From IMG/VR virus record IMGVR_UViG_3300045988_025911: a DNA stretch of 43,901 bases; one strand, given 5' to 3'. Shown piece by piece: positions 2,210 to 22,605 of this stretch. The position numbers were made by a program, and so were the translations under genes. The DNA comes from a virus. Position 1 is the stretch's first letter, and every line of letters starts with the position of its first letter. A model generated the notes under the pieces. The model was not told where the DNA came from and ran no database searches. It was given only the letters and a program-made list of their open reading frames with translations.

Positions 2210-2218
2210 TGATATAAT
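2210..2218 (+). promoter_or_regulatory. Extended -10 promoter element TGaTATAAT
   Basis: TG at 2210-2211 and TATAAT at 2213-2218, about 40 nt upstream of the ATG at 2260. Confidence 0.4.
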
Positions 2219-2259
2219 GCTATATGAGAAGTACGCAAAACGGTTGAAAGGAGAAAAAG

Positions 2260-2397
2260 ATGATCGATTATTTAGTCGAAAACGGATGGGTAGACTCATT
2301 TATCCGAACTGCTGTCACCATCGGAATTTATCTCGGTTGGAAGACGATTTTGACTGGAATCTACAGATTCATCAAGAATAGACTTCATAAGAATTGA
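2260..2397 (+). CDS. 45-aa hydrophobic/basic peptide (small membrane peptide, type-I-toxin-like or exclusion-like)
   Basis: Strong SD AAAGGAG 6 nt before the ATG. MIDYLVENGWVDSFIRTAVTIGIYLGWKTILTGIYRFIKNRLHKN has one predicted membrane helix plus a basic tail. It converges on and overlaps the 3-prime 102 nt of the minus-strand ORF 2296-2694. Confidence 0.45.
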   Translation: MIDYLVENGWVDSFIRTAVTIGIYLGWKTILTGIYRFIKNRLHKN

Positions 2398-2694
2398 CAA
2401 GCGTATCGAGAAGTACACAATGAAGAGTGCTCCACATATTACACGCGACGGGTTATCGTGGTTTATGCCGATGAATACCCCCATCCCACCAGAATACGAA
2501 AATGCTACAAATAACATAACGTATTGCAGAATGGTACGAGTTTTTTCTTTATTTTGTCGCAAAACTTTAAGCCGTTTCCCGATTGCGCGAAATATCAAAG
2601 CGCAGATTCCGCTAATCGCTGCGATAAGCAGACCAGTTACGAGATCGCGCACGGAAACATAGTTTTCAATAAACTGTGCAATGCAATCCTTCAT
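2296..2694 (-). CDS. Multi-pass membrane protein (possible superinfection exclusion/immunity cargo)
   Basis: ATG at 2694 with GGAG 7 nt upstream. 132 aa with three hydrophobic segments (LVTGLLIAAISGICALIF, YVMLFVAFSYSGGMGVFI, VICGALFIVYFSIRLSIL). The hydrophilic tail overlaps the convergent small ORF. Confidence 0.55.
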   Translation of the reverse strand: MKDCIAQFIENYVSVRDLVTGLLIAAISGICALIFRAIGKRLKVLRQNKEKTRTILQYVMLFVAFSYSGGMGVFIGINHDNPSRVICGALFIVYFSIRLSILMKSILDESVDSSQNRLPTEINSDGDSSSDK

Positions 2695-2808
2695 GTCTAT
2701 TCTCCAAGCATAGCTTTCATGCGAAAGCCGAGACCATATATTAGTCAAATCAACGCTGGAATTATGAGCGCACAAACGGATTTCGCGCCGGAATGCGTGA
2801 AAATCAAA

Positions 2809-3015
2809 TTACGAATCCATGTTGATGTATTGGAGCAGTTCAATGACTGCTTTGTCTGATGCTCCATATTCTCGTATCACGCGGCTGCGGTCTGTGTACT
2901 CGATTAGAAAGCAGTAAATGGTGCTGTTGTATGTTGCAAGAACCTTTGTTTCCTCGGCAGTTCTAACTCCGAGACACTTAACACGCTGAATCTGTTTTTT
3001 CTGGAATAGTGGCAT
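2809..3015 (-). CDS. Hypothetical protein (68 aa) downstream of the repressor
   Basis: ATG at 3015 with GGAGG 8 nt upstream. Same strand as and 27 nt after the CI-like gene. No recognisable domain. Confidence 0.6.
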   Translation of the reverse strand: MPLFQKKQIQRVKCLGVRTAEETKVLATYNSTIYCFLIEYTDRSRVIREYGASDKAVIELLQYINMDS

Positions 3016-3042
3016 AAGAATACCTCCAAATCAGTTTTAGTT

Positions 3043-3411
3043 TCACTTCCCAAGCATAACCTTCATAGCGGCGATGAATTTTCTAAGTTCGTCGTCGCTC
3101 ATTTTACTGGACAGTTCGATCAATTCAAGCTGGCCCATACTGAGTTCGCTCTTTTCCGGAGCGGGCTCTTTTTTTATGCCCGCAGACGGATCATTGGTTT
3201 CACCATTGAGCCATTCAACGGGAACGTTGTATTTAGCTGAAACGACGTACAGGTAATTCCTGTACGACTTTGTTTTCCCGGCCTCCCACTCAGAAACAAT
3301 GTTTGTCGGCGCGCCTATGGCTTCACAAAATTCCTTTTTCGCTCCGTGGACATATTTACCATTCTCTTTTTTGGGGATGAGAGAAAGCATCCGTTCCAGC
3401 ATAATATCCAT
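3043..3411 (-). CDS. CI-like phage repressor (XRE-family HTH)
   Basis: HTH-like segment KKEFCEAIGAPTNIVSEWEAGKTKSYRNYLYVVSAKYNVPVEWL plus a C-terminal dimerisation-like tail. Divergent from the Cro-like gene. First ATG at 3411; the ORF-track start at 3435 is TTG. Confidence 0.85.
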   Translation of the reverse strand: MDIMLERMLSLIPKKENGKYVHGAKKEFCEAIGAPTNIVSEWEAGKTKSYRNYLYVVSAKYNVPVEWLNGETNDPSAGIKKEPAPEKSELSMGQLELIELSSKMSDDELRKFIAAMKVMLGK

Positions 3412-3468
3412 ACTATCACCACGTGAATTGTGCAACTCTACGAAAACTAGAAAATTCTAATTTTATTG

Positions 3469-3497
3469 TTGCATTGCTAGAATTTATGAGTTATTAT
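3469..3497 (+). promoter_or_regulatory. Early rightward promoter TTGCAT-17-TATTAT with CTAGAA half-sites
   Basis: -35 at 3469-3474 and -10 at 3492-3497. CTAGAA repeats at 3447-3452 and 3477-3482 (30 bp apart). TAGAAAATTCTA (3448-3459) is a near-palindrome. Confidence 0.5.
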
Positions 3498-3649
3498 ATA
3501 ACTGTACCCAAGAGGTACAGAAAAGACAGCCGCTCCGAAAACGGCGAGATTATGTGTCCTGAACAAACCCATAATATCACCGCTTTCGGGCGCTGTCAAT
3601 AATAACTACTCATATTTATGAGGTATTAGGGGGGAGTGCCACGAGAAAC

Positions 3650-3844
3650 TTGAAAGAACTTCGCCTGAACGCCGGGTTGACGCAGGAAGCCGTTGCAAGG
3701 CGGTGTAATGTCAGTCAGGTTGCAGTACACAAGTGGGAGACCGGTAACGCAGGCATCGCAAGAAAGCACCACAAAAAACTTGCGAAACTTTATGGATGCT
3801 CGGTTGAAGATTTAGTTGCCGGGCAATCACTTGGAAAGGAATGA
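3650..3844 (+). CDS. Cro-like XRE-family HTH regulator
   Basis: 64 aa; LKELRLNAGLTQEAVARRCNVSQVAVHKWETG is a classic HTH_3 pattern. TTG start with GGGGGGAG 13 nt upstream. Divergent from the CI-like gene. Confidence 0.8.
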   Translation: MKELRLNAGLTQEAVARRCNVSQVAVHKWETGNAGIARKHHKKLAKLYGCSVEDLVAGQSLGKE

Positions 3845-4149
3845 AAACATGGATAACACAAAAGGCTTTAAGGCGTTCACACCGGGGCTTGTGTGTGAAG
3901 GAAAGCAATACGCCGAGAACACAGACCATGACGCAGGCTGAAAAGGTGCTCCGACACCTGAAAGCAGTCGGGAAGATTACGCCGATGGATGCCATTCGGG
4001 AATACGGTTGTCTCAGGCTGGGCGCTAGAATATGCGACCTTCGCCGTGCCGGATACCCTATCAGGAGCCGAATCGTAACCGGCGAAAACCGTTTTGGCGA
4101 ACCGACGCATTATGCTGAATACAGTTTGGAGGCCGACGATGGAGATTGA
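3841..4149 (+). CDS. Winged-helix/HTH DNA-binding protein
   Basis: Conserved-looking core MTQAEKVLRHLKAVGKITPMDAIREYGCLRLGARICDLRRAGYPIRSRIV starts at the internal ATG 3928. The upstream ATG 3841 overlaps the cro-like stop (ATGA). Start is uncertain. Confidence 0.7.
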   Translation: MKTWITQKALRRSHRGLCVKESNTPRTQTMTQAEKVLRHLKAVGKITPMDAIREYGCLRLGARICDLRRAGYPIRSRIVTGENRFGEPTHYAEYSLEADDGD

Positions 4150-4369
4150 TTATTCCAAAGACCCGCAGCAGGCAAGATGCGCGTATGACATCTTCGGCGT
4201 AGAGATTTACCCCGGAGAGGATTACTGGCAAGGCGACGAGGGAATCATGGCAGACCCCGGCACGGGGAACTACGATCCAGACAATCAAATCGTCGCCTTG
4301 CTAGTACAGCAACTCGGGACACGGCACATTTTGGAGGCGCTTGGATATGGCCGGAAAACTCTCGAATGA
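4139..4369 (+). CDS. Hypothetical protein (76 aa)
   Basis: GGAGG 6 nt upstream of ATG 4139. Overlaps the upstream stop codon. No recognisable domain. Confidence 0.55.
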   Translation: MEIDYSKDPQQARCAYDIFGVEIYPGEDYWQGDEGIMADPGTGNYDPDNQIVALLVQQLGTRHILEALGYGRKTLE

Positions 4370-4580
4370 CTATGTTTACATCCCCGTGGAGACGAGAGTA
4401 AGCGTTTTTTTCGAGAAGGACCATATCTGCTGCCAATATTGCCCATTTTTTGAAACTTATTCGAGAAAACAATGCAGACTGACCGGGGAATACATCGTTC
4501 ACGAATTTGGCAGAGGTTATTACTGCCGCTTGGAATTGGAGGGAAATAATGAAACAGTTTCGGACACTGAAACCGGATGA
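4347..4580 (+). CDS. Small Cys-rich hypothetical protein
   Basis: GGAGG 10 nt upstream of ATG 4347. Contains CCQYCP...C...YYC. Lies upstream of the annealase gene. Confidence 0.6.
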   Translation: MAGKLSNDYVYIPVETRVSVFFEKDHICCQYCPFFETYSRKQCRLTGEYIVHEFGRGYYCRLELEGNNETVSDTETG

Positions 4581-5283
4581 AATCGAATGCCGAGTTGCGC
4601 AGTGCAACGAAAAAGGAGCATCCATCCTGCTCTACAAGACGGCTCGAACGGATGCGGATCTCCTTGACGAGACCGTAGGAACGCAGAATTGGGAAAACGA
4701 CTTCAAGCTTGTCGATGGAGTTCTATATGGCGGGATCGGCGTTGACTATTTCAGCAACGGACACCTCGTATGGAAGTGGGACGCTGGCGTTGAAAGCAAC
4801 ACGGAGGCTGAGAAAGGCCGTGCATCCGACGCATTCAAACGTGCTGGTTTCAAACACGGCATTGGCAGAGAACTTTATTCTGCCCCGTTTATCTGGATAG
4901 GCGCTGAGAACTGTTCTCGGCTCGTCAAAAACGAGCGAACCGGGAAATGGCAGTGCTCTGACCATTTCGACGTCTCGGAGATTACATACGACGAAGCGGA
5001 ACGCATCAAAACACTGACGATCACGTCCAAGGGCCGAACGGTTTACACGTTCGGGAATACGACGCAGAATCCCGCGCCGAAACCAGCGGCGCAGCAACCG
5101 AAAAAACAGGAGCGCCAGCCGGGATTCAAATGCGCTGACTGCGGCAAGCCTGTTGAGCCGTCCGTTTTCAATGGCAAAAGCTATTCGGCATGGGCCATCG
5201 CAGAGAACACGACGAAGAAATATGGGCGTTGCCTCTGCTGGGATTGCTACATGAAGCTTGTGCAGGGCATAGGCAATGACTGA
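4549..5283 (+). CDS. Rad52/Sak-like single-strand annealing protein with C-terminal zinc ribbon
   Basis: GGAGGG RBS. The N-terminus FRTLKPDEIECRV and the segment EAEKGRASDAFKRAGFKHGIGRELY resemble Rad52-type phage annealases. The C-terminus has CADCG...CLCWDC. Confidence 0.75.
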   Translation: MKQFRTLKPDEIECRVAQCNEKGASILLYKTARTDADLLDETVGTQNWENDFKLVDGVLYGGIGVDYFSNGHLVWKWDAGVESNTEAEKGRASDAFKRAGFKHGIGRELYSAPFIWIGAENCSRLVKNERTGKWQCSDHFDVSEITYDEAERIKTLTITSKGRTVYTFGNTTQNPAPKPAAQQPKKQERQPGFKCADCGKPVEPSVFNGKSYSAWAIAENTTKKYGRCLCWDCYMKLVQGIGND

Positions 5284-5839
5284 GATCACATTTACCGCCG
5301 CCGATTGGTCGCTGGACTCCGCCGGGACATGGCTTCGCATCCGCGCGGACGTCCCCGCGAAAGCACAAATGTTTCTGTCAACGATGATTCCCGGCAAGAA
5401 GTACGTTGCGGAGATCAAGGAGTTCCGCAAGAAGCGTAGTCTTGATTCAAACAACTACTTCTGGCAGCTCTGCGATCAGATCGCGGACAAGCTCGGACGG
5501 ACGAAAGAAGACATATACATCGACTATATCAAGGCGGTCGGCGTATTTAAGGACTTCCACCTCACAAGAGAGGACGCACCGACGTTCCGGACGGCGTGGT
5601 CTATGCTTGGAACTGGCTGGCCAACGGAAGAGGTTGATTATCAGCAGGACGGTGACGGCGTTGTTGTCAGAGCTTATTACGGCTCTTCGACGTACAACAG
5701 CAAGCAAATGTGCCGCATTATCGATATGGCGGTGCAGGATGCGAAAAGCCTCGGAATCGAGACCTTGACGCCTGACGAGCTGGCTCGGATGAACATTGAA
5801 TGGGGTGAGAGAGCTGCACAAACAGACAAAGGCAACTAG
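5276..5839 (+). CDS. NinB/Orf-like recombination mediator
   Basis: KKRSLDSNNYFWQLCDQIADKLG and SSTYNSKQMCRIIDMAVQDAKSLGIE...EW parallel the RSLDQN...W and ST..M... motifs of lambda NinB. Located between the annealase and SSB genes. Confidence 0.55.
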   Translation: MTEITFTAADWSLDSAGTWLRIRADVPAKAQMFLSTMIPGKKYVAEIKEFRKKRSLDSNNYFWQLCDQIADKLGRTKEDIYIDYIKAVGVFKDFHLTREDAPTFRTAWSMLGTGWPTEEVDYQQDGDGVVVRAYYGSSTYNSKQMCRIIDMAVQDAKSLGIETLTPDELARMNIEWGERAAQTDKGN

Positions 5840-15216: not shown

Positions 15217-15553
15217 AATTACAATGCATTGCCCGACTTGTGGGAAGTTGATAACGAGAAAGGCAAAAAACACAAGCAAACGTGTATTTTGTACGCCGGA
15301 ATGTTATCACGCATACAGAGACCCGCAGAAGAAAAAGCACGTAAAACTCGGTGCGGCTGCTAAACCAAAAAGGACGGACGGCGTTAAGGTAATTATAACC
15401 AAAGTTCTTCCGATTTACGCTGATTTCAGGCCAATTCCCGGCAAAACCTATATTGCGGAGAAATACGAATGTCACAGAGCGCCGACCGGATACGTTGTCT
15501 CCGTAAACGGGCATAGGGTAAACGTGCGAAAGGACGAATGCAAGGAGGTTTGA
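15209..15553 (+). CDS. Zinc-ribbon protein (114 aa)
   Basis: AAAGGAG RBS. Contains CPTCG...CTPEC. Confidence 0.6.
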   Translation: MIEITMHCPTCGKLITRKAKNTSKRVFCTPECYHAYRDPQKKKHVKLGAAAKPKRTDGVKVIITKVLPIYADFRPIPGKTYIAEKYECHRAPTGYVVSVNGHRVNVRKDECKEV

Positions 15554-15555
15554 CG

Positions 15556-15999
15556 GTGCAGAAAGGAATGGAAGCCATTACATGGACGCAGAAGAAGATA
15601 CTGCCGGTATTTGCGAAGTGCAATATGAGCAGCAGAAAGACCGCAGAAGAGATTTTTTTGAGTCCGGGCGACGTTGATTACCATTTGCGCATGATCGAGA
15701 TAAAAACCGGACTGAATCCGCGCGTTTTCGTTGACCTTGTAAAGCTACTGTTCCTCTGCGGCGAAGGAAATATGTTCGGGCTGGGGGGAATTGCTATGAC
15801 GGACAGGCAGGAAGAATTCTATCTGCTCTACATGAGCGGCGTCAGAACCGGCGAAATAGCCCGCAGATACGGCGTAAACAGGTCTACAGTCACGCGGATA
15901 ATATCACGGGCAGAAAACCATCTGCGACGCGCAGAAAGGCTTAAGCGGCGCGTTGACGCGATGCAGAAAGAGGCTGAAAATGAAAATATTAGCCATTGA
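15556..15999 (+). CDS. Transcriptional regulator with two HTH units (LuxR-like plus sigma-70 region-4-like); candidate late-gene activator
   Basis: GTG start 7 nt after AAGGAGG. SPGDVDYHLRMIEIKTG is LuxR-like. TDRQEEFYLLYMSGVRTGEIARRYGVNRSTVTRIISRA is region-4-like. Confidence 0.65.
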   Translation: MQKGMEAITWTQKKILPVFAKCNMSSRKTAEEIFLSPGDVDYHLRMIEIKTGLNPRVFVDLVKLLFLCGEGNMFGLGGIAMTDRQEEFYLLYMSGVRTGEIARRYGVNRSTVTRIISRAENHLRRAERLKRRVDAMQKEAENENISH

Positions 16000-16486
16000 C
16001 CCCGGCAACGTCAGAAGCGGCTATGTCTTGGCCGAATACGACGAGGCAGAAATCAGGCGTGTGCTTCGTGTCGGGAAGGTAGAGAATGCAGAAATGATGC
16101 AGATCATTTCCGAGATCGCAGAAAGCGCAGAAACAGATTTTGCGATTGAGATGATCGCCGGAATGGGCATGACGGTCGGTGCAGAAGTCTTCGATACATG
16201 CGTATGGATAGGCCGATTTTGGGAGCGTGCGCTAACGCGGGGCGTCCGCCGGATGGGGTATATCTATCGGCGGGAAGAAAAGCTTTGTCTGTGCGGCTCG
16301 CCGAGAGCGAAGGATGGCAACATCCGGCAGGCGCTGGCTGACCGCTACGCGCCCGGACAGCCGAACTTCGGGAAAGGCACAAAGAAACAACCGGGTTTTT
16401 TCTTCGGCTTTTCCGCTGACATGTGGGCGGCTATGGCGGTAGCTACCACATACTACGACAAATTTATAAAGGGGATTCGGATATGA
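15980..16486 (+). CDS. RuvC-like Holliday junction resolvase
   Basis: N-terminal MKILAIDPGNVRSGYV (catalytic Asp in the first strand) and C-terminal SADMWAAMAVA. AAAGAGG RBS. Confidence 0.7.
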   Translation: MKILAIDPGNVRSGYVLAEYDEAEIRRVLRVGKVENAEMMQIISEIAESAETDFAIEMIAGMGMTVGAEVFDTCVWIGRFWERALTRGVRRMGYIYRREEKLCLCGSPRAKDGNIRQALADRYAPGQPNFGKGTKKQPGFFFGFSADMWAAMAVATTYYDKFIKGIRI

Positions 16487-16671
16487 TGGGCGAACTCATG
16501 GACGCCGTTGGAGCGCTTGCAGAAATGGCGCTGCTGTTTTACAAAGCTACGATAAACGCGGGCGCAACAGAAGAACAGGCGAACATCCTGATAACTGCGT
16601 TCCTGCGGGCGTCATTGCAGAAAAACGGGAAGAACAAAGAAGAAAGAGAAGATAGCGGAGACACGGAATAA
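16483..16671 (+). CDS. Hypothetical protein (62 aa)
   Basis: ATGA overlap with the resolvase stop. AAAGGGGA lies upstream. Confidence 0.5.
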   Translation: MMGELMDAVGALAEMALLFYKATINAGATEEQANILITAFLRASLQKNGKNKEEREDSGDTE

Positions 16672-16695
16672 ACTTTTGCGATACCGCAGAAAAAG

Positions 16696-16720
16696 AACCC
16701 CGCCCACATCGGGCGGGGTT
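16696..16720. terminator. Bidirectional intrinsic terminator between convergent genes
   Basis: AACCCCGCCC-acatc-GGGCGGGGTT. On the minus strand it is followed by TTCTTTTTCT. Sits between stop codons at 16671 (+) and 16724 (-). Confidence 0.75.
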
Positions 16721-16723
16721 ATC

Positions 16724-17458
16724 TTATCTCGCAAAGACTCTTTGCAGAAATGAGCGTTGCTTCCGGTAAAACGTCGTAACCGCTTCGATCTCGTCGCATC
16801 CGGTATAAGGGACGTCATACCGCCAAACTCCGGCGGGCGTTTGATAGATACACTGGCCGTATCTCGGGAGCTGTTCCAAGCCGGGCATATCTAAGATATT
16901 CCGGCTTTGCTGCCGGGTAGCGGTGTGCAGGCCGCAAATGGCCGTAAAATTGACTTTAACCGCCGTCGGGATGATCGTTGCAAGCGGGCATTGCGTAACA
17001 AGAATAACATGCACTTTTGCGGCGCGCCCGATCTGGCAAAGGCGCTGGACGGTCGGCAATGTCTCTTTCTTTGCCGTGGTCATGAGGTCGGCAAACTCTT
17101 CGATGATGACATACACGTTCGCGCCGTCGTATGTGCGCATCCTGCGCCGCTGCATGTCCTTGTAGCGGGCGTTTACAATGCCCATCGCATAATCAAGCGC
17201 CGCTATGATGTCGCCGTGTTCCGTGGCGTGACGCAGTGTGTGCGGCATCGCGGCATATTCGTTAAGCTCTGTCCGCTTCGGATCGATAAGAATCATTTGT
17301 ATCTGGTTTGGATGGTGGCGCAGGATAGCGCACACCAGCCCATTAAGCAAAACGGATTTACCGGAGCCGGACGCGCCAGCAATTAGCAAATGCGGCTGCG
17401 AAAGCATATCAGCAAACAGGCCCGGAACCTGTCCGCCGATGTTGGTAATCTTTTTCAT
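16724..17458 (-). CDS. Minimal FtsK/SpoIIIE-HerA-type P-loop ATPase (motor domain only)
   Basis: Walker A LLIAGASGSGKS, Walker B VYVIIEEFADL, and HVILVTQCP...TRQQSRNILD resembling the FtsK ATQRP...DSR region. Only about 20 residues precede the P-loop. Confidence 0.85.
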   Translation of the reverse strand: MKKITNIGGQVPGLFADMLSQPHLLIAGASGSGKSVLLNGLVCAILRHHPNQIQMILIDPKRTELNEYAAMPHTLRHATEHGDIIAALDYAMGIVNARYKDMQRRRMRTYDGANVYVIIEEFADLMTTAKKETLPTVQRLCQIGRAAKVHVILVTQCPLATIIPTAVKVNFTAICGLHTATRQQSRNILDMPGLEQLPRYGQCIYQTPAGVWRYDVPYTGCDEIEAVTTFYRKQRSFLQRVFAR

Positions 17459-17736
17459 GCTATTTCCTCTTTCGGTTTGGCAAAGAAATATGTTCCGTTC
17501 GCTTTATAGCAGTCATTCCAATACTGCGCGACTTCTTCGGCGCGTTTCTTTGTCGGAAGAATGTTCGCATGGATAATGCCGCCGATGCAGCCCAGACTGT
17601 GCAGAAGGTTGTCATTTTCGGAGCAGCGGACAACGAACGCATAATAACCGGGGCTATATTCCGAGTTTGTGCGCTCTGTGAAAGTCGTTTCGTTTCGGTC
17701 CTGTTTTACAGAAACTGCGATATAGAAGTTAGCCAT
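17455..17736 (-). CDS. Hypothetical protein (93 aa), middle gene of the minus-strand operon
   Basis: GGAGG 8 nt upstream of ATG 17736. Its stop overlaps the ATPase start (ATGA). No recognisable motif. Confidence 0.7.
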   Translation of the reverse strand: MANFYIAVSVKQDRNETTFTERTNSEYSPGYYAFVVRCSENDNLLHSLGCIGGIIHANILPTKKRAEEVAQYWNDCYKANGTYFFAKPKEEIA

Positions 17737-17765
17737 TGTTAAAACCTCCAATTTGTGCGGGGCGG

Positions 17766-18419
17766 TCAAACCGCCACCGCGAGTGTTTTATAGTCGAACG
17801 TGTGGCAAGCTGCGACGATCTCGCGCCGGGTGTCGTCGTGCCACCAGAAGCGCCAGCCGCGCGGGTTCTCGTAGATGTCCTGCGCGAATGCCTCCACGTC
17901 GATCTCTCCACGTCCGAAGTCTGTAGCCGCGTCGAATGCGTAGTCATCCGTGTATCTGCCCTCGGTGCGGCCTGCGACGATCTGCCCGGCGCGAATGGCT
18001 TTTGCAATCGTCCCGGCGTTCAGTCGGTCTCCCAGCTTCACGGGCTTCACAGGGGCGAATGGCGAAAACGTCCGGTTTCCCGGCTGTGTCCCTGCCGAGA
18101 CCGTCAGGCCGTCCACCTCGCGCATAGGCTTCCCGGCGCGAAGCCATGCGACAAGCTCAGAGAGGGTGTCACACTCCGGCGCGGCCATCTCTACATATTC
18201 AGTCATGCAGAGGCGGTCAGCGTCCATCTTCCACGAGCTGACCGAGAAAAGCCAGCGCGTGCAGGTCTCGCAGTTCTGCATCGCGTTCGCCAAGTCGATA
18301 ATAACAAGGCTGTTGCGGTACGGATGGGCCGATACGTTCAGGCCCTCAAAGTAGAGATCGTCATACTGGTTCAAAAGGTCGATCACGCGGAATGCTTCAC
18401 AGTTTTTAATGATTTTCAT
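17766..18419 (-). CDS. Hypothetical protein (217 aa), first gene of the minus-strand operon
   Basis: GGGAGGAG 6 nt upstream of ATG 18419. No motif that I can name. Confidence 0.75.
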   Translation of the reverse strand: MKIIKNCEAFRVIDLLNQYDDLYFEGLNVSAHPYRNSLVIIDLANAMQNCETCTRWLFSVSSWKMDADRLCMTEYVEMAAPECDTLSELVAWLRAGKPMREVDGLTVSAGTQPGNRTFSPFAPVKPVKLGDRLNAGTIAKAIRAGQIVAGRTEGRYTDDYAFDAATDFGRGEIDVEAFAQDIYENPRGWRFWWHDDTRREIVAACHTFDYKTLAVAV

Positions 18420-18478
18420 TGTTTGCTCCTCCCTGTTTTCTGCCGCTTGGCGGCTCCGTATCTCTTGTTTACATGCCT

Positions 18479-18507
18479 ATTATACACGGTACGAAGTACA
18501 AATGCAA
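18479..18507 (-). promoter_or_regulatory. Promoter of the minus-strand operon, TTGCAT-17-TATAAT
   Basis: Read on the minus strand: -35 TTGCAT (18507-18502), 17-nt spacer containing two GTAC cores, -10 TATAAT (18484-18479). Confidence 0.6.
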
Positions 18508-18555
18508 CCGGCAAACAGTACAAAGATACAACGTACATTTTGTGCATATTTGTAC

Positions 18556-18584
18556 TTTACAACGCTACCCGCGCATGATAATAT
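18556..18584 (+). promoter_or_regulatory. Divergent promoter of the RHH gene, TTTACA-17-TAATAT
   Basis: -35 at 18556-18561 and -10 at 18579-18584. RBS AGAGGTGA and the ATG at 18602 follow. Confidence 0.55.
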
Positions 18585-18601
18585 ATCATAGAGGTGATAC
18601 G

Positions 18602-18799
18602 ATGCCAATTACAGACGCGCGCCGCAGAGCAAATCAAAAGTGGGATGCGGAAAACATGGCTTATCAAACGATCAAGGTTAAAAAAACGCTGCTTGAGGAT
18701 TTCAAAGCGGCATGTGCAGTTAGGGGCGACAAGGTGAATACAGTTCTCAGGCAGGCCATGGAGGAATACACATACAAGGAGGAAAACGAAGATGCTTAA
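18602..18799 (+). CDS. Ribbon-helix-helix (CopG/Arc-like) DNA-binding protein
   Basis: 65 aa. RRRANQKWDAENMAYQTIKVKKTLLEDFKAACAVRGDKVNTVLRQAMEEY follows the beta-strand/helix/helix pattern of RHH regulators and antitoxins. Confidence 0.7.
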   Translation: MPITDARRRANQKWDAENMAYQTIKVKKTLLEDFKAACAVRGDKVNTVLRQAMEEYTYKEENEDA

Positions 18800-19070
18800 C
18801 GAGCTTGAACTACAGCAGGCGCTGGAAATCGCGGGCGAGGCCAGACGCGGAGCGGTACACGATATTCAAGTAATCATCGAAAACACGATTTCAAAGCAGC
18901 TTGAACTGCTGGCAGAGGGGCAACGGACGATCATTGAAACACTCACGCCGAGGAGCGAAACCGAGGAGCTGAAAGAGGAAATCGACTTTCTGAAATCTGT
19001 TATCCGGATGCACGCGAAGCAACTCGCCGAGCAGCAAAAGGAAATCGAGCAACTGAAAAAAGCACAATAA
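18792..19070 (+). CDS. Coiled-coil hypothetical protein (92 aa)
   Basis: AAGGAGG 9 nt upstream. Overlaps the RHH stop. Heptad-rich Glu/Leu/Gln sequence. Confidence 0.6.
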   Translation: MLNELELQQALEIAGEARRGAVHDIQVIIENTISKQLELLAEGQRTIIETLTPRSETEELKEEIDFLKSVIRMHAKQLAEQQKEIEQLKKAQ

Positions 19071-19074
19071 GCAA

Positions 19075-19107
19075 AGCACCGGCTACCGATTAACGGCGGT
19101 CGGTGCT
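19075..19107 (+). terminator. Hairpin after the RHH/coiled-coil pair
   Basis: AGCACCG...CGGTGCT outer stem with further inner pairs. The T-tract is poor. Confidence 0.45.
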
Positions 19108-19499
19108 CTTGCTATCCTGTGCAGTATCTATTTTTGCAATGCGGGAGCGTCAGCGGCTCGCATGTCTGAGGCCCCCCGCGCACCGGATGCACCACAGCGG
19201 CGCACAATGTACGCGCGTTGCTTACTCCTTTCAATCCGAGCACGCACCACTCTTGTAATATACGCGCCCCCGCGCAAAACTCCCATATCTGCCACGATTC
19301 CGCCGACGATCACGCAACGGAGCAGCGCACGGCGCAAAGTGATGCACGCGAACGGGCACCAATTCCCCGCAGCACGCCCAAAAGCCTTGATTTTCCCGTG
19401 CAAAAAATGTTATGCTTTTGCTAGCAGCGCAGCCGCAAGCTAGCTTGCGCACGCGCAGCCGACGCAAAAGCGCAATTTTGATTTTTACGGGGTGAGTTC

Positions 19500-20078
19500 A
19501 TGCCAAAGGCAACCGCAGCCAAGGAGCAATCAACAGAGATCGCAAAGCCCAAGCGCAAGCGCAACAGGCCCGATCTTGCCAACTTCGGCCAAGAGTACAT
19601 AGAGCCGGGAGACAATGCCCGATACCTTCGGAATGCTATGGTTGCGTGGGACTTGCCCCCGATCGACATCAGCGATCCCAAGCAGGTTGAACACCGCATT
19701 CAAGAATATTTTGAATTCTGCATCAATCAGGATGCGAAGCCAAGCGTTCCCGGAATGGGGCTATGGCTAGGCGTGGACGCCACTACTATTCGCAAATGGA
19801 GAGCAGGCGACTACAGGAGCACAACGCACCTACCGGTGATAAAAAAAGCGATGTTTGTGCTTGAATCCCTCTGGAATGATTGGATGCAATCCGGCAAGAT
19901 CAACCCGGCGTCCGGCATTTTCATTGGTAAGAATATGTTCGGGTACAAAGATACACAAGATGTTGTGGTAACTCCGAATAATCCGCTAGATAACGGGACT
20001 TCCCCTGCTGAGATTGCGGACAAGTATAGGGATGCACTGCCGGAAGCGGCCCCTGTGCCGGATATGTCGGATAAGTAA
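19500..20078 (+). CDS. terS: Terminase small subunit
   Basis: Basic N-terminus; HTH-like PSVPGMGLWLGVDATTIRKW; GKINPASGIFIGKNMFGYKD is typical of Firmicutes phage TerS. Lies upstream of terL. Confidence 0.8.
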   Translation: MPKATAAKEQSTEIAKPKRKRNRPDLANFGQEYIEPGDNARYLRNAMVAWDLPPIDISDPKQVEHRIQEYFEFCINQDAKPSVPGMGLWLGVDATTIRKWRAGDYRSTTHLPVIKKAMFVLESLWNDWMQSGKINPASGIFIGKNMFGYKDTQDVVVTPNNPLDNGTSPAEIADKYRDALPEAAPVPDMSDK

Positions 20079-20346
20079 CGCCACCAAATATCTATTTTGT
20101 TGCGTTGAATATCTGCGGAAAGTTGCGAAAACATGTTGAAAACCATTGAAACGTGAACGTTATGCACGTATGCAATGCATGAAGCGCATATTATACAGGC
20201 CGTGAAGGTGCATACCGGAGGGGGAAACGGAGCCCCAGGCCTCGGCCCGGTGAACGCTTTTACCACGGAAAATGTAAAAAGGCATTTACTTTCGACCGAA
20301 TTGAATACACGCCGCACCGATAAGGGGTTCGGTGTAAGCAGCAAAG

Positions 20347-20381
20347 AAGGGCTGACGTTGTAAGCGTCGGCCCTTTTGTTT
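20347..20381 (+). terminator. Strong intrinsic terminator immediately upstream of the terL RBS
   Basis: 11-bp stem AAGGGCTGACG/CGTCGGCCCTT with a 7-nt loop, followed by TTTTGTTT. GGAGGAG and ATG 20393 follow directly. Confidence 0.7.
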
Positions 20382-20392
20382 GGAGGAGAAGG

Positions 20393-22036
20393 ATGTACGA
20401 AGAGACGTTAAGCAGGATCAGACGATTCATCGAGTCGAGACCGGAGGATAGCGCGGCGTATGGGGACTACTTCGACATTGTCAGGGCAATGTGGGAAACG
20501 GATAGATGGAATGCGTTCAGGCACAATCTGTGGCTGAGAAATGCGACGGCCTTGAAGGTAAAAGAAGTGGAAGATGCGAAGGCAGTTCTCAAATTTTTCG
20601 AAATAAACAAAAAGACGTATCTCTTGGCTGCGAAAGATGACTTCGATTCTTACTGCGTATATCTGGAATGGAACAGGGACAAGACGAAACGGTTTTATGT
20701 TCCGAGAAGGGCGACTCTCCGGCCACTTGTACAGGACTTGCAGGAACTGAACGATGGGAAGTTGGATTTCCTCGGGGTGTCTTTGCCTCCGCGAGTTGGG
20801 AAGTCTACGCTCTGCATTTTTTTCATGACGTGGATCATGGGGAAGAGACCGGAAGTTGCAAATGTCATGTCAGGACACTCGGATAAGCTGACGGACGGGT
20901 TCTACAGAGAGACAATGAACATCCTGACGGACGCGGAAACGTACTCTTGGGCTGACGTGTTCCCGGATGTTAAGGTCGTGGATAATTCCGCAAAGAACGA
21001 GACGATTGATCTGGAGCGGAAGAAGCGCTTCCCAACGTTCACGGCGCGGTCTGTCGGCGGAACACTGACCGGCGCAGTCGAAGTCGGAACGGGCGGATGC
21101 TTGTATGTGGACGATCTGATAGAGGATCTGGAAGAGTCCTTGAATCCTGTACGGCTGCAAGCAAAATACGATGCGTATTTGAATCAGCTCAAAGACAGAA
21201 AAAAAGACGGGGCTTTCGAGCTGATGGTCGGTACACGGTGGAACGTTGCCGATCCGCTGGGAAGGATTCAGGAGCAGTACGAAGGAAACCCGCGATATCG
21301 ATTCCGCGTGATTCCGGCCCTGAACGAAAAGGGAGAATCGAATTTCAACTACCAATACGGGCTTGGCTTCTCTACGGAGTACTACAAGGACATGAAGGCC
21401 AGCATCGACGATGCGACGTGGTGTGCGAAGTATCAGGGTAAACCTTATGTTCGTGAGGGACTTTTGTTCCCTGCGGAGTCTCTTCGGTATTACAACGGCG
21501 TTTTGCCGGAAGACGATTTCTATAAAGTCGCTGTGTGCGACGTGGCGTGGGGCGGCGGTGACAGCCTTGCAATGCCCTTTGCGTATGTAGCGACGGACGG
21601 CAGCGTTTATATTCACGACGTTATTTTCAGCAAGGGCGCGAAGGACGTTACGCAGCCTCTTGTAGTTAACCGGACGAAGGAGCACAAGCCGCACAAGGAG
21701 CGCTTCGAGGCGAACAACGGCGGCGGAGAATATGCTTCGACTGTTGATAGACTGCTCCGAGGAATTGGGGTGACAACGAATATCACTTCTCAGAGAGCGC
21801 CGAACAATCAAAGCAAGCTCGGGCGGATTATTCAGTACTCCCCGGAAATCAAGAAGTTCTATTTCATCGACAAAGAACACAGAACACCGGAATACGACGA
21901 GTTTATGCGCGAAGTGTGTACCTTCTCACAGACAGGTAAGAACGTGCACGACGACGCGCCGGATAGTTTGGCAATGTTAGCCGACGAATTGTATCATGGC
22001 TCTGCGCAAATCGAGATCAAACGCCGAACGTTCTAA
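20393..22036 (+). CDS. terL: Terminase large subunit
   Basis: 547 aa. Walker A-like GVSLPPRVGKST and a C-terminal nuclease-like region with conserved Asp residues. Positioned between terS and portal. Confidence 0.9.
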   Translation: MYEETLSRIRRFIESRPEDSAAYGDYFDIVRAMWETDRWNAFRHNLWLRNATALKVKEVEDAKAVLKFFEINKKTYLLAAKDDFDSYCVYLEWNRDKTKRFYVPRRATLRPLVQDLQELNDGKLDFLGVSLPPRVGKSTLCIFFMTWIMGKRPEVANVMSGHSDKLTDGFYRETMNILTDAETYSWADVFPDVKVVDNSAKNETIDLERKKRFPTFTARSVGGTLTGAVEVGTGGCLYVDDLIEDLEESLNPVRLQAKYDAYLNQLKDRKKDGAFELMVGTRWNVADPLGRIQEQYEGNPRYRFRVIPALNEKGESNFNYQYGLGFSTEYYKDMKASIDDATWCAKYQGKPYVREGLLFPAESLRYYNGVLPEDDFYKVAVCDVAWGGGDSLAMPFAYVATDGSVYIHDVIFSKGAKDVTQPLVVNRTKEHKPHKERFEANNGGGEYASTVDRLLRGIGVTTNITSQRAPNNQSKLGRIIQYSPEIKKFYFIDKEHRTPEYDEFMREVCTFSQTGKNVHDDAPDSLAMLADELYHGSAQIEIKRRTF

Positions 22037-22215: not shown

Positions 22216-22291
22216 GGGACATTAGCTCAGTTGGTAGAGCAGCGGACTGTTAATCCGCCTGTCGGAGGTTCAAACCCTTCATGCCCCGCCA
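22216..22291 (+). tRNA. tRNA-Asn (anticodon GTT), CCA encoded
   Basis: Manual cloverleaf: acceptor GGGACAT/ATGCCCC (one A-C mismatch), D arm GCTC-AGTTGGTA-GAGC, anticodon arm GCGGA-CTGTTAA-TCCGC, T arm GGAGG-TTCAAAC-CCTTC. Confidence 0.85.
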
Positions 22292-22528: not shown

Positions 22529-22605
22529 GGGCCGTTATCTCAAATGGCTAGAGCGACCGGCTCATAACCGGTAACATCTCGGTTCGACTCCGAGACGGCC
22601 CACCA
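22529..22605 (+). tRNA. tRNA with CAT anticodon (Met elongator or Ile2), CCA encoded
   Basis: Acceptor GGGCCGT/ACGGCCC, anticodon arm ACCGG-CTCATAA-CCGGT, T arm CTCGG-TTCGACT-CCGAG. The D stem has one mismatch. Confidence 0.85.

Follow-up and report, generated by a model that had tools for sequence, protein, structure and literature searches.

In canonical FtsK, the transmembrane part directs the protein to the septum, the alpha domain is required for ring formation, and the gamma domain reads KOPS sequences and activates XerD. Phage relatives of these pumps have been described. SpoIIIE homologues occur in Bastille-like Bacillus phages, where they are transcribed opposite to the neighbouring modules (PMC4528723), and spoIIIE homologues are listed among the sporulation genes of human-gut phages (PMC10294663). 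For the locus studied here, a preliminary description had proposed an undescribed three-gene system built around a minimal FtsK-type ATPase. As regards the ATPase, this novelty does not hold, because PHROGs names its family and both papers report phage SpoIIIE/FtsK homologues. A second body of work concerns conjugative elements, in which LPD25 is a polyvalent-protein domain (PMC5512222).

The window, by which we mean the whole 43,901-nucleotide stretch analysed (IMG/VR virus record IMGVR_UViG_3300045988_025911), belongs to a temperate phage, and its gene annotation includes an integrase and repressor-like genes. The phage is tailed, of the terminase-portal kind, and encodes a TerS and a TerL itself. 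Its relatives come mostly from metagenomes, some of them of human faeces, and the one genome-collection scan made for the phage gave distant matches only. The locus and its surroundings are laid out as follows.

132-1238, integrase, a context gene of the window
15953-16486, RuvC-like resolvase, upstream of the block
16696-16720, G+C-rich hairpin terminator at the end of the minus-strand cassette, common to the converging plus-strand genes (fold against shuffles)
16724-17458, minus strand, 244-aa FtsK-type ATPase ORF (ORF list and translation)
17455-17736, minus strand, 93-aa ORF with an ATG start (ORF list)
17766-18419, minus strand, 217-aa ORF (ORF list)
18479-18507, minus strand, promoter-like site of the cassette (TTGCAT, 17 nt, TATAAT)
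18495-18556, three AGTACAAA boxes between the divergent promoters, candidate RHH operators
18556-18584, plus strand, promoter-like site of the RHH gene (TTTACA, 17 nt, TAATAT, with TG)
18602-18799, plus strand, divergent ribbon-helix-helix (RHH) ORF of 65 aa (ORF list)
18792-19070, plus strand, coiled-coil ORF of 92 aa (ORF list)
19070-19113, plus strand, stable hairpin 3' of the coiled-coil gene, without a U-run
19500-20078, TerS, downstream of the block

All ORFs of the minus-strand trio and of the divergent RHH/coiled-coil pair are present, and the block does lie between the replication/recombination and packaging genes of a temperate phage, with regulatory signals of its own. Its counter-orientation is supported by the AT skew, which is -0.118 in 17001-18000 and positive in all other 1-kb bins from 2001 to 43000. 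GGAGG ribosome binding sites stand 8 nt 5' of both the 217-aa and the 93-aa starts, a GAGGA can be read 5' of the ATPase start, and the ATG of the ATPase (17458-17456) overlaps the TGA of the 93-aa gene (17457-17455) in an ATGA. The terminator had been called bidirectional. Its stem of 9-11 bp is G+C, folds far better than shuffled sequences (z=-4.6 for the minus strand and -5.7 for the plus strand) and is kept in relatives; it is convincing on the minus strand, where CTTTTTCTGC (UUUUU) follows, but its plus-strand tail is merely moderately T-rich. The hairpin after the coiled-coil gene also exists (-27.6 kcal/mol, z=-5.8), without a U-run. The cassette promoter, 60 nt 5' of the 217-aa start, is likewise upheld in part: its -10 hexamer TATAAT is perfect, whereas its -35 hexamer TTGCAT shares just TTG with TTGACA and failed the consensus scan.

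The ATPase matches PF01580 (FtsK_SpoIIIE) with E=6e-32 and 111 bits (cut-off 24) and PHROG 1358, which is filed under 'moron', with 2.5e-49. Walker A (GASGSGKS) occupies G28-S35 and Walker B (VYVIIEEF) V115-F122, and the TQ motif and the SRN region are also present. Hence, 27 residues precede the P-loop and not about 20, as had been counted. Among solved structures, E. coli FtsK (2IUS) is the closest, with E=2e-30; residues 14-211 align on its chain positions 160-395 in two halves, between which about 35 residues of 2IUS have no counterpart, and about 30 residues follow the beta domain. This alignment is consistent with an ATPase that keeps the motor (beta) domain alone. The absence of the membrane, alpha and gamma domains is borne out by the start of the alignment at chain position 160 and by the lack of any hydrophobic 19-residue window; prediction of transmembrane segments found none in the ATPase. 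With the NCBIfam FtsK equivalog the ATPase reaches 103 bits, where the cut-off is 1566, and NF007615 matches with 7e-30. The protein is basic (pI 9.4) and ends in a short basic-aromatic C-terminal tail. It is a minimal FtsK-type protein and not the packaging motor, since the phage has its own TerS and TerL.

At E<=1e-10, the ATPase has 3337 homologues, the best 120 of which are about 232-298 aa long. It belongs to a large clade of soluble, basic proteins of about 240 aa that contain the FtsK beta domain only and are found on mostly metagenomic phage contigs; ATPases of this pared-down type are widespread in phages of the gut. Clade members more than 40% identical to the ATPase were found on phage contigs only; no cultured-phage protein exceeds 35% identity to it, and plasmid matches, also at 35% or less, are generic FtsK. 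Similar small ATPases are found in mycobacteriophages, and distant relatives are encoded by Bastille-like phages of Bacillus, which are virulent.

For the 217-aa and 93-aa proteins, profile searches of four libraries gave no named family, in agreement with the preliminary description. The 217-aa protein does belong to a large unnamed family (90 close homologues; 508 clusters at E<=1e-3) with the motifs GRYTDDYAxDA and CH[TS]FD. Its AF2 model (pLDDT 92.6) matched no PDB fold, and for the 93-aa model (pLDDT 81.6) no fold was matched either. Members of the 217-aa family reside on Firmicute plasmids (Bacillus, Clostridium); one of them, from a B. subtilis plasmid, has ssb and an orphan cytosine methyltransferase gene in its vicinity. 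The domain is fused to LPD25 (2e-13) and to DUF3846 (2.8e-10) in single members only, and it matched none of the Pfam LPD models. Among the 146 listed representatives that were new to the second search, 37 are at least 300 aa long, and most fusion partners are unannotated.

A comparison of related phages shows that the three genes do not form a conserved system, for each of them is found without the others. In relatives with a 91-98% identical ATPase, the ATPase gene directly follows the 217-aa gene and the 93-aa gene is missing; in six loci (L017-L019, L022, L023 and L031) the distance is 58 nt. In L001-L004 and L026, the 93-aa gene is reduced to a remnant of its last 31 codons. A 58% identical homologue of the 93-aa protein lies in a cassette with neither partner, and in L011-L013 the gene occurs on its own. 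Elsewhere its pairing with the ATPase is mosaic: in L027-L029, a 93-aa gene of 94% identity adjoins an ATPase of 73%, and in L021, L024 and L025 the values are 62-65% for the 93-aa gene and 87-88% for the ATPase. The 93-aa gene is an optional, exchangeable insert. The 217-aa gene is present without the ATPase in L005-L010, L030 and L032-L035. Of 80 viral contigs that encode a related ATPase, two have a member of the 217-aa family, and each of the two shares over 90% identity with the window. In the clade of the window itself, where ATPase identity is 73-98%, the 217-aa gene and the ATPase almost always accompany each other, which common descent accounts for as well as a clade-limited functional link. 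Because no conserved co-occurrence was found, an outcome that the preliminary description itself had named as refuting, we reject the three-gene system; the locus is very probably a mosaic cassette.

In the neighbourhoods of the ATPase, TerS-like proteins (81 loci), TerL (56) and primases (40) are all encoded on the strand opposite to it. The ATPase gene closes a same-strand block in 25 of the 33 dereplicated lineages; in 23 of the 33 the block has five genes or fewer and faces terminase genes. The neighbourhood gene calls came from a simple codon-usage caller written for this analysis, so these block sizes are approximate. Immediately upstream of the ATPase, 28 distinct clusters were counted in the 33 lineages. 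The commonest partner family is accompanied by the ATPase in just 18 of 65 loci, and the 217-aa and c30 partner families occur mostly without it. A few partners can be identified: ArdA (1.8e-36) is the first gene of one block (L071), LPD25 (4.4e-17) lies inside another (L067), and one cassette partner matches an anti-restriction PHROG. The position of the ATPase relative to terS varies between upstream and downstream, and a close relative (L030) lacks the ATPase while keeping the resolvase and terminase, so the ATPase is dispensable. The earlier view of the block as a moron or accessory island is supported by its own promoter-like site and terminator and by gene content that varies among syntenic relatives.

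The divergent 65-aa protein is indeed an RHH protein. Searched alone it gave weak RHH matches, and a profile of 12 homologues was needed, whose top PDB matches were all RHH proteins, with AvtR first (1.2e-5) and VapB26, ParG, Arc, omega, CopG and Mnt next. Its homologues match NikA-like, RHH_1/7/10 and TacA1, and variant RHH genes occupy the same divergent position in relatives. Two AGTACAAA boxes, 18495-18502 and 18517-18524, are direct repeats 22 nt apart, and a third, 18549-18556, is inverted. Three of the six copies of the 7-nt core GTACAAA in the whole window fall within these 60 bp, and the boxes overlap both back-to-back promoter-like sites. We infer that they are candidate operators bound by the RHH protein, which is probably the regulator of the cassette. 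The 92-aa protein is acidic, is predicted to form a coiled coil and matches PHROG 33872 (unknown function) at 8.7e-10; its gene is present in the closest relatives only (L017, L023 and L031). A type II toxin-antitoxin pair was considered and rejected, as the gene 3' of the RHH gene encodes an acidic coiled coil without a toxin family match and is missing in relatives that retain an RHH gene.

The most likely explanation, to which we assign a probability of about 0.6, is that the block is an RHH-controlled mosaic accessory island at the early/late boundary beside terS, made up of modules that can be exchanged one by one and not of the subunits of one machine. That it serves establishment or anti-defence, rather than defence, is a tentative leaning; as most partners are unannotated, this leaning rests on few identifiable neighbours and on guilt by association. 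In such an island, the cassette promoter would fire once the DNA becomes active in the cell, and the RHH protein would bind the boxes overlapping both promoters and thus throttle the cassette. The 217-aa protein would serve establishment or counter-defence, in the manner of the leading-region and polyvalent-protein genes that accompany it elsewhere. The ATPase would work by itself as a ring-shaped dsDNA-dependent motor, which its basic-aromatic tail may keep at the membrane or on nucleic acid, and which would handle phage DNA or strip host proteins from it, though any specific role assigned to it is unlikely to be the right one. Against the ring stands the missing alpha domain, on which ring formation in FtsK depends. 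An improbable extension makes the block the phage counterpart of a leading region, in which the beta-only FtsK clade has a self-sufficient, unrecognised function, is encoded with anti-restriction-type genes and aids genome entry. Lying beside the packaging start and oriented against the packaging direction, the cassette would in that case enter a new cell with the first DNA and would be read in entry order, and a tail-anchored motor at the membrane would help to pull in or shield the incoming genome.

The preliminary description had spoken of a moron or defence cassette, and an accessory, counter-oriented cassette is what we find. That it serves prophage defence or superinfection exclusion is unlikely. 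The ATPase core would in that case scan or translocate invading DNA, and the variable upstream genes would be interchangeable sensors or effectors, on the model of HerA-Sir2, HerA-DUF4297 and Lamassu. The conserved ATPase with variable partners across 33 lineages fits this, as do the 'moron' class of PHROG 1358, the reverse orientation of the cassette and its possession of a promoter-like site, a terminator and a repressor-like RHH gene of its own; a repressor-controlled cassette of this orientation suits defence morons expressed in a lysogen equally well. The ATPase domain also resembles the C-terminal domain of SspH (1.4e-21) and mad8 (6e-19) in PADLOC. However, these matches are confined to the P-loop domain (SspH 1536-1761 of 1766, mad8 23-265 of 314), no other SspFGH or MADS component is found among the five proteins, and PADLOC matched none of the other four. 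HerA models cover residues 17-60 only (E about 1e-4), with no effector domain in the neighbours. PADLOC likewise matched 0 of 56 partner representatives from ATPase-bearing cassettes, among which no nuclease, Sir2 or TIR effector domain was recognisable, so that the defence part of the claim has no positive support. The partners that can be identified are of anti-restriction types (ArdA, LPD25), the 217-aa and c30 families, mostly without the ATPase, are unlike obligate sensor-effector pairs, and the distant ATPase relatives in Bastille-like phages belong to virulent viruses (PMC4528723).

Host takeover, in which the minimal ATPase would disturb or replace host FtsK/SpoIIIE and so alter division, chromosome dimer resolution or sporulation, is rather improbable. 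The nearest solved and curated relatives are FtsK proper (2IUS, NF007615) and not coupling proteins or HerA, the gut and Bastille-like phages carry spoIIIE homologues (PMC10294663, PMC4528723), and relatives of the window phage come from metagenomes that include human faecal samples. Yet the ATPase lacks the transmembrane, alpha and gamma domains that serve septum placement, the ring and KOPS/XerD, the mycobacteriophages with similar small ATPases have non-sporulating hosts, and the genome-collection scan gave distant matches only. A helper role in concatemer processing, in which the ATPase would translocate dsDNA or drive branch migration together with the neighbouring RuvC-like resolvase or with terminase, is very improbable. 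In the window's clade, the resolvase gene does lie about 240 nt past the ATPase 3' end, the cassette adjoins terS/terL in most lineages, and a comparable guess has been made for a Streptomyces phage (PMC11536984), but the ATPase is encoded opposite to the replication and packaging operons, is dispensable where resolvase and terminase are kept, and changes sides of terS between lineages. The idea of a conjugation-like remnant, with the ATPase as a coupling protein of a DNA-transfer module, is largely refuted. In elements of Firmicutes and actinomycetes, FtsK-type ATPases do function as coupling proteins or TraB, weak matches to plasmid TraB (3.4e-5) and VirB4 exist, and the ArdA/LPD25 neighbours of other lineages recall conjugative elements. 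However, the score with plasmid_TraB is 22.5 bits, where the cut-off is 800, the ATPase has no predicted transmembrane segment, no relaxase was matched among the five cassette proteins, and its plasmid matches are remote and generic, the closer clade members being on phage contigs.

Compared with known systems, the ATPase shares with FtsK/SpoIIIE (PF01580; the E. coli and P. aeruginosa motor domains, 2IUS and 2IUU), by a wide margin its best matches, the RecA-like beta domain, Walker A and B, the TQ motif and SRN. It differs in having 244 aa instead of roughly 800-1300, no four-transmembrane anchor, linker, alpha or KOPS-reading gamma domain, and a basic-aromatic tail in place of gamma. The PHROG 1358 proteins of cultured phages (the mycobacteriophage cluster-J-type 'FtsK-like DNA translocase', e.g. 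Omega gp203, and the Bastille-like SpoIIIE) are also stand-alone phage FtsK-type ATPases, but the window ATPase falls into a clade of its own, metagenomic and very large, whose members have about 240 aa and characteristically close short cassettes next to terS/terL at the 3' end. Stand-alone P-loop packaging ATPases of the A32/PRD1 P9 type, within the FtsK-HerA superfamily, are of similar length (about 230-270 aa), and with the Pox_A32 model the ATPase reaches 27.2 bits (cut-off 22.8), though beneath the far stronger FtsK match (111 bits); the window phage, in contrast, is tailed, has its own TerS/TerL, and its ATPase gene is dispensable in relatives. SspFGH, MADS mad8 and HerA-Sir2/DUF4297 resemble the locus in the ATPase domain and in the general pattern of an ATPase with variable neighbours. 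Their other defining components are missing here, and the neighbours match no defence model and are not obligate partners. From the leading-region and polyvalent anti-defence genes of conjugative elements and phages (Iyer, Burroughs and Aravind 2017, PMC5512222), finally, the 217-aa domain differs in lying outside the Pfam LPD families and in being here a solo phage-cassette gene under a probable RHH regulator. Points in common are the fusions of some family members to LPD25 and DUF3846, the B. subtilis plasmid homologue with ssb and an orphan methyltransferase close by, and the ArdA and LPD25 genes of sister cassettes.

An ORF check of the window confirmed the five genes at the positions given in the preliminary description, which had proposed that the three minus-strand genes form a candidate undescribed defence or moron system:

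16724-17458, minus strand: gene of the minimal FtsK-type ATPase
17455-17736, minus strand: gene of the 93-aa protein
17766-18419, minus strand: gene of the 217-aa protein
18602-18799, plus strand: gene of the ribbon-helix-helix (RHH) protein
18792-19070, plus strand: gene of the coiled-coil protein

Thirty-nine loci, found via the 217-aa, 93-aa and ATPase proteins, were compared by tblastn. In six close relatives (L017-L019, L022, L023 and L031), the 217-aa protein is 85-93% and the ATPase 88-98% identical to those of the window, and the 93-aa gene is absent, the ATPase starting 58 nt past the 217-aa stop. In L001-L004 and L026, the 93-aa gene is cut to its last 31 codons before the ATPase and a different 47-aa gene lies upstream, and L020 has another filler in its place. 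The 217-aa gene is found without the ATPase in L030 (77% identity), in L008-L010 (66%) and in the more distant L005-L007 and L032-L035. A 58%-identical 93-aa homologue belongs to a counter-oriented cassette of small genes from which both partners are absent. A 94%-identical 93-aa gene stands beside a 73%-identical ATPase in L027-L029, and a 62-65%-identical one beside an 87-88%-identical ATPase in L021, L024 and L025. In a listing of 80 viral contigs selected for a related ATPase (40-95% identity), only two, both more than 90% identical, also encode a 217-aa family protein. Hence, conserved co-occurrence of the three genes is absent, each of them being found without the others, an outcome that the preliminary description itself had named as a refutation, and the proposed three-gene defence system does not hold. 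We consider the cassette to be a mosaic of exchangeable genes and the trio to be no real system (probability roughly 0.85). As a whole, the block is nothing out of the ordinary, an accessory island of varying content where two modules of a temperate phage meet.

The 31-codon remnant (10871-10963 in L001) is 97% identical and lies directly upstream of the ATPase start, the rest of the gene being swapped for the unrelated 47-aa gene. It marks a recombination junction inside the 93-aa gene, one that keeps the translation start context of the ATPase.

The gene neighbourhoods of the wider ATPase family were called with a home-made caller based on codon usage, tested on L001 against its supplied calls. 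Dereplication of the ATPases at 90% identity gave 56 clusters, and in 33 of them the same-strand block is complete. In 25 of these 33 lineages the block ends with the ATPase, and in 23 the block that it ends comprises at most five genes. The gene directly upstream of it falls into 28 distinct clusters and the first gene of the block into 19, where the caller is simple and the clustering is at BLAST level, so that remote homology among partner families would escape it. The commonest first gene, cluster c30, accounts for 9/33 lineages and the 217-aa family for 3/33. The c30 family matched 175 viral contigs; among the 80 loci retrieved from these, 65 have enough downstream sequence, and the ATPase is present in 18 of the 65. 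As the upstream genes vary and c30 mostly lacks the ATPase, the latter has no obligate partner. What is conserved is its position. The cassette occupies one of two sites, the gap that separates the replication genes from terS (the case here) or the interval from terS to terL. In the listed loci, its TerS-like (81), TerL (56) and primase (40) neighbours are always on the opposite strand. Next to it there is repeatedly a small gene for a DNA-binding protein, transcribed divergently; in the clade of the window this gene is of the RHH type, and in 35 other loci it reads as a probable XRE-type helix-turn-helix gene. As a separate observation, c30 itself (loci L044-L065 and L129-L205; alignment A7) is an unnamed domain widespread in metagenomic phage contigs, with 47 invariant positions among eight aligned sequences (...RSAW..G...Y...GGSxLIYDxDIAxRLCxPSE...GERxPN..E.WLD.QARAL.QA) and no match in Pfam or PADLOC.

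The window is a temperate phage, with an integrase (132-1238) and repressor-like genes, and no DNA similarity to cultured phages was found. A RuvC-like resolvase gene (15953-16486) lies just past the 3' end of the ATPase gene and TerS is encoded at 19500-20078; in relatives, TerL, SPP1-type portal and Mu-F-like genes follow downstream. Within a long plus-strand stretch, the AT skew is negative in 17001-18000 only, which agrees with the lone counter-oriented block noted previously. A 280-aa plus-strand ORF (17736-18578) overlaps the 217-aa gene completely and would mislead a longest-ORF gene caller; homologues, codon scoring and the ribosome binding site all favour the minus-strand gene, and we dismiss the other as a shadow ORF. 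Elsewhere in the phage, two tRNA genes, Asn-GTT (22216-22291) and Met-CAT (22529-22605), occupy the interval from the large terminase gene to the portal gene. In 35001-36000 the G+C content rises to 0.64 and the AT skew to 0.31, compared with a G+C content of about 0.52-0.55 in the rest of the phage. This segment, which could be repeat-rich or recently acquired, falls in an 860-aa gene (34637-37219) downstream of the packaging genes, in the expected tail-gene region.

Most of the expression signals reported for the block were found again. GGAGG stands 8 nt before the 217-aa and 93-aa starts, the 93-aa stop and the ATPase start share an ATGA overlap, and the hairpin at 16696-16720 is a strong minus-strand terminator-like structure whose stem is followed by CUUUUUCUGC (z = -4.6 against shuffles). 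In addition, GAGGA precedes the ATPase start, and the RHH and coiled-coil genes overlap by 8 nt. Two signals were borne out in part. Past the coiled-coil gene, 19070-19113 folds into a very stable hairpin (z = -5.8) that lacks a U-run, and the cassette promoter has a perfect TATAAT but a -35 element that matches in TTG only and failed the consensus scan. A plus-strand promoter-like site before the RHH gene was picked up by the same scan. No credible Rfam match was found in 15500-20500. The roughly 390-bp non-coding region upstream of terS (19114-19499), which likewise has no Rfam match, is 93-96% identical in nine relatives and is kept even where the neighbouring RHH and coiled-coil genes differ or are gone; shorter stretches, 19071-19110 and about 19402-19481, survive in more distant relatives. 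This region could contain a pac site, a late promoter or a regulatory RNA.

The assignment of the RHH protein holds once a homologue profile is used, the top PDB matches all being RHH proteins (AvtR, VapB26, ParG, Arc, omega, CopG and Mnt). Its candidate operators are as follows:

Between the back-to-back promoter-like sites, in a span of 60 bp: three AGTACAAA boxes, two direct and 22 nt apart, one inverted

The core GTACAAA has six copies in the window, three of them within the region of the boxes. Box 1 is within the spacer of the cassette promoter and the inverted box abuts the -35 element of the RHH promoter. We infer that the RHH protein may repress both promoters, in which case the cassette would be expressed in a burst and then shut off, or steadily at a low level.

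Neither the 217-aa nor the 93-aa protein has a family in Pfam, PHROGs, PADLOC or NCBIfam. The AlphaFold model of the 93-aa protein is fair (pLDDT 81.6) and has no fold match. That of the 217-aa protein is confident (pLDDT 92.6), and searches gave no PDB match by fold or by sequence profile, no tblastn match in cultured phages, and a single BFVD match, an unnamed 480-aa viral protein. The 217-aa family is unnamed and structurally novel. It is also far larger than the first search implied: a profile search of a 50%-identity representative library gave 508 clusters at E<=1e-3 and 396 at E<=1e-10, with the conserved motifs GRYTDDYAxDA and CH[TS]FD. Among 146 listed representatives absent from the first search, 37 are at least 300 aa long, and two of these are fused, one to LPD25 (2e-13) and one to DUF3846 (2.8e-10). 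A 516-aa fusion member is on a 2.9-kb contig with uninformative context. LPD25 occurs in the polyvalent proteins that conjugative elements encode and to which a role in host conflicts is ascribed (PMC5512222). Homologues of 26-35% identity are encoded by plasmids of Bacillus subtilis, B. licheniformis, B. paralicheniformis and Clostridium estertheticum. In a 65-kb B. subtilis plasmid (L128; CP120602, 1022-6612), a 30%-identical homologue lies a few kb away from ssb and an orphan DNA cytosine methyltransferase gene, on their downstream side, and is followed by a tetratricopeptide-repeat gene and then a 46-codon ORF, a layout that looks like an establishment or leading region.

The ATPase matches PF01580 (6e-32), PHROG 1358 'FtsK/SpoIIIE-like protein' (2.5e-49), E. 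coli FtsK (2IUS; 2e-30) and the NCBIfam FtsK model (7e-30, far under its equivalog cut-off). The aligned residues 160-395 of the 2IUS chain are taken to be the beta (RecA-like) domain. With 27 residues before the P-loop, about 30 after the domain, no hydrophobic segment and a basic pI of 9.4, the protein is a soluble, beta-domain-only FtsK relative with intact nucleotide-binding motifs. Its family comprises 3337 proteins at E<=1e-10, the best 120 of which are about 232-298 aa long, and the closest proteins of cultured phages or plasmids are at most 35% identical, the plasmid search giving generic FtsK only. A scan of a genome collection with the ATPase profile gave, among the matches listed, six distant loci at 27-34% identity. 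One further feature of the family is its C-terminus:

16724-16760, minus strand: last 12 codons of the ATPase gene, encoding the C-terminal tail (homologues P0116-P0235)

These tails are short, with many Trp, Phe and Leu residues and, over the last 11 positions, a median net charge of +4; it is their character that is conserved, and not their sequence (SFLQRVFAR, RPRLKWF, RRRWWQRIA, RRGLFGRLFG). The last of these resembles the membrane-targeting sequence of MinD. The hydrophobic moment did not discriminate in a test for a membrane-targeting helix, as MinD's own tail was low in that calculation, and hence only the basic-aromatic composition of the tail stands. The tail may bind membrane or nucleic acid.

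As for function, a defence module with swappable effectors is improbable and has no positive support: none of 56 representative partner genes, taken from ATPase-containing blocks of other lineages, matches PADLOC defence models, and the PADLOC matches of the ATPase itself (SspH C-terminus, mad8) are limited to the ATPase domain. The few partners named by Pfam or PHROG are ArdA (1.8e-36), LPD25 (4.4e-17) and an anti-restriction PHROG, the remainder being GP88, DUF7447, DUF7678 and a hexapeptide-repeat protein. A bona fide ArdA gene opens the L071 block (2214-5705), where a small divergent gene upstream is read as a regulator, and in L067 an LPD25-domain gene shares the block with the ATPase. 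An ArdC-N reading of a 124-aa neighbour in L007, based on a motif, was dropped when a PDB sequence search gave no support. The neighbour evidence, though thin, hints at counter-defence or establishment rather than defence. The 217-aa protein would act in either of these, and the ATPase may form a ring that moves along dsDNA or strips proteins from it.

Interference with the host FtsK/SpoIIIE is possible, and papers in which spoIIIE homologues of phages are listed (PMC10294663, PMC4528723) imply it, although similar proteins also exist in mycobacteriophages and the ATPase is devoid of every domain that determines where FtsK is located and how it reads sequence. A replication or packaging helper is unlikely, the ATPase gene being dispensable in close relatives, and this dispensability, along with the presence of TerS and TerL, is the ground for rejecting a packaging motor. 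A toxin-antitoxin pair is rejected for want of a toxin, and the conjugation remnant suggested previously is essentially excluded.

The preferred reading, an exchangeable accessory cassette, leaves two subjects worth targeted work, the placement of the ATPase clade and the 217-aa family. The clade is very large and its place is stereotyped, at the end of a short cassette that faces the terminase genes; free of any obligate partner, it offers experiments a clean single-gene target for the role of a beta-only FtsK motor in a phage. The 217-aa family, shared by phages, Firmicute plasmids and polyvalent proteins, is a good candidate for a new domain of anti-defence or establishment. The cassettes, with ArdA and LPD25 among their genes, might be worth mining as an anti-defence island in phages that are known mostly from metagenomes. 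In the literature on small phage FtsK-like proteins we found annotations and guesses only, and no tested function. Its motor domain places the ATPase in the FtsK/SpoIIIE superfamily, but the protein is not a canonical FtsK. It is a new and very abundant branch of the known but unstudied 'phage FtsK/SpoIIIE-like proteins'.
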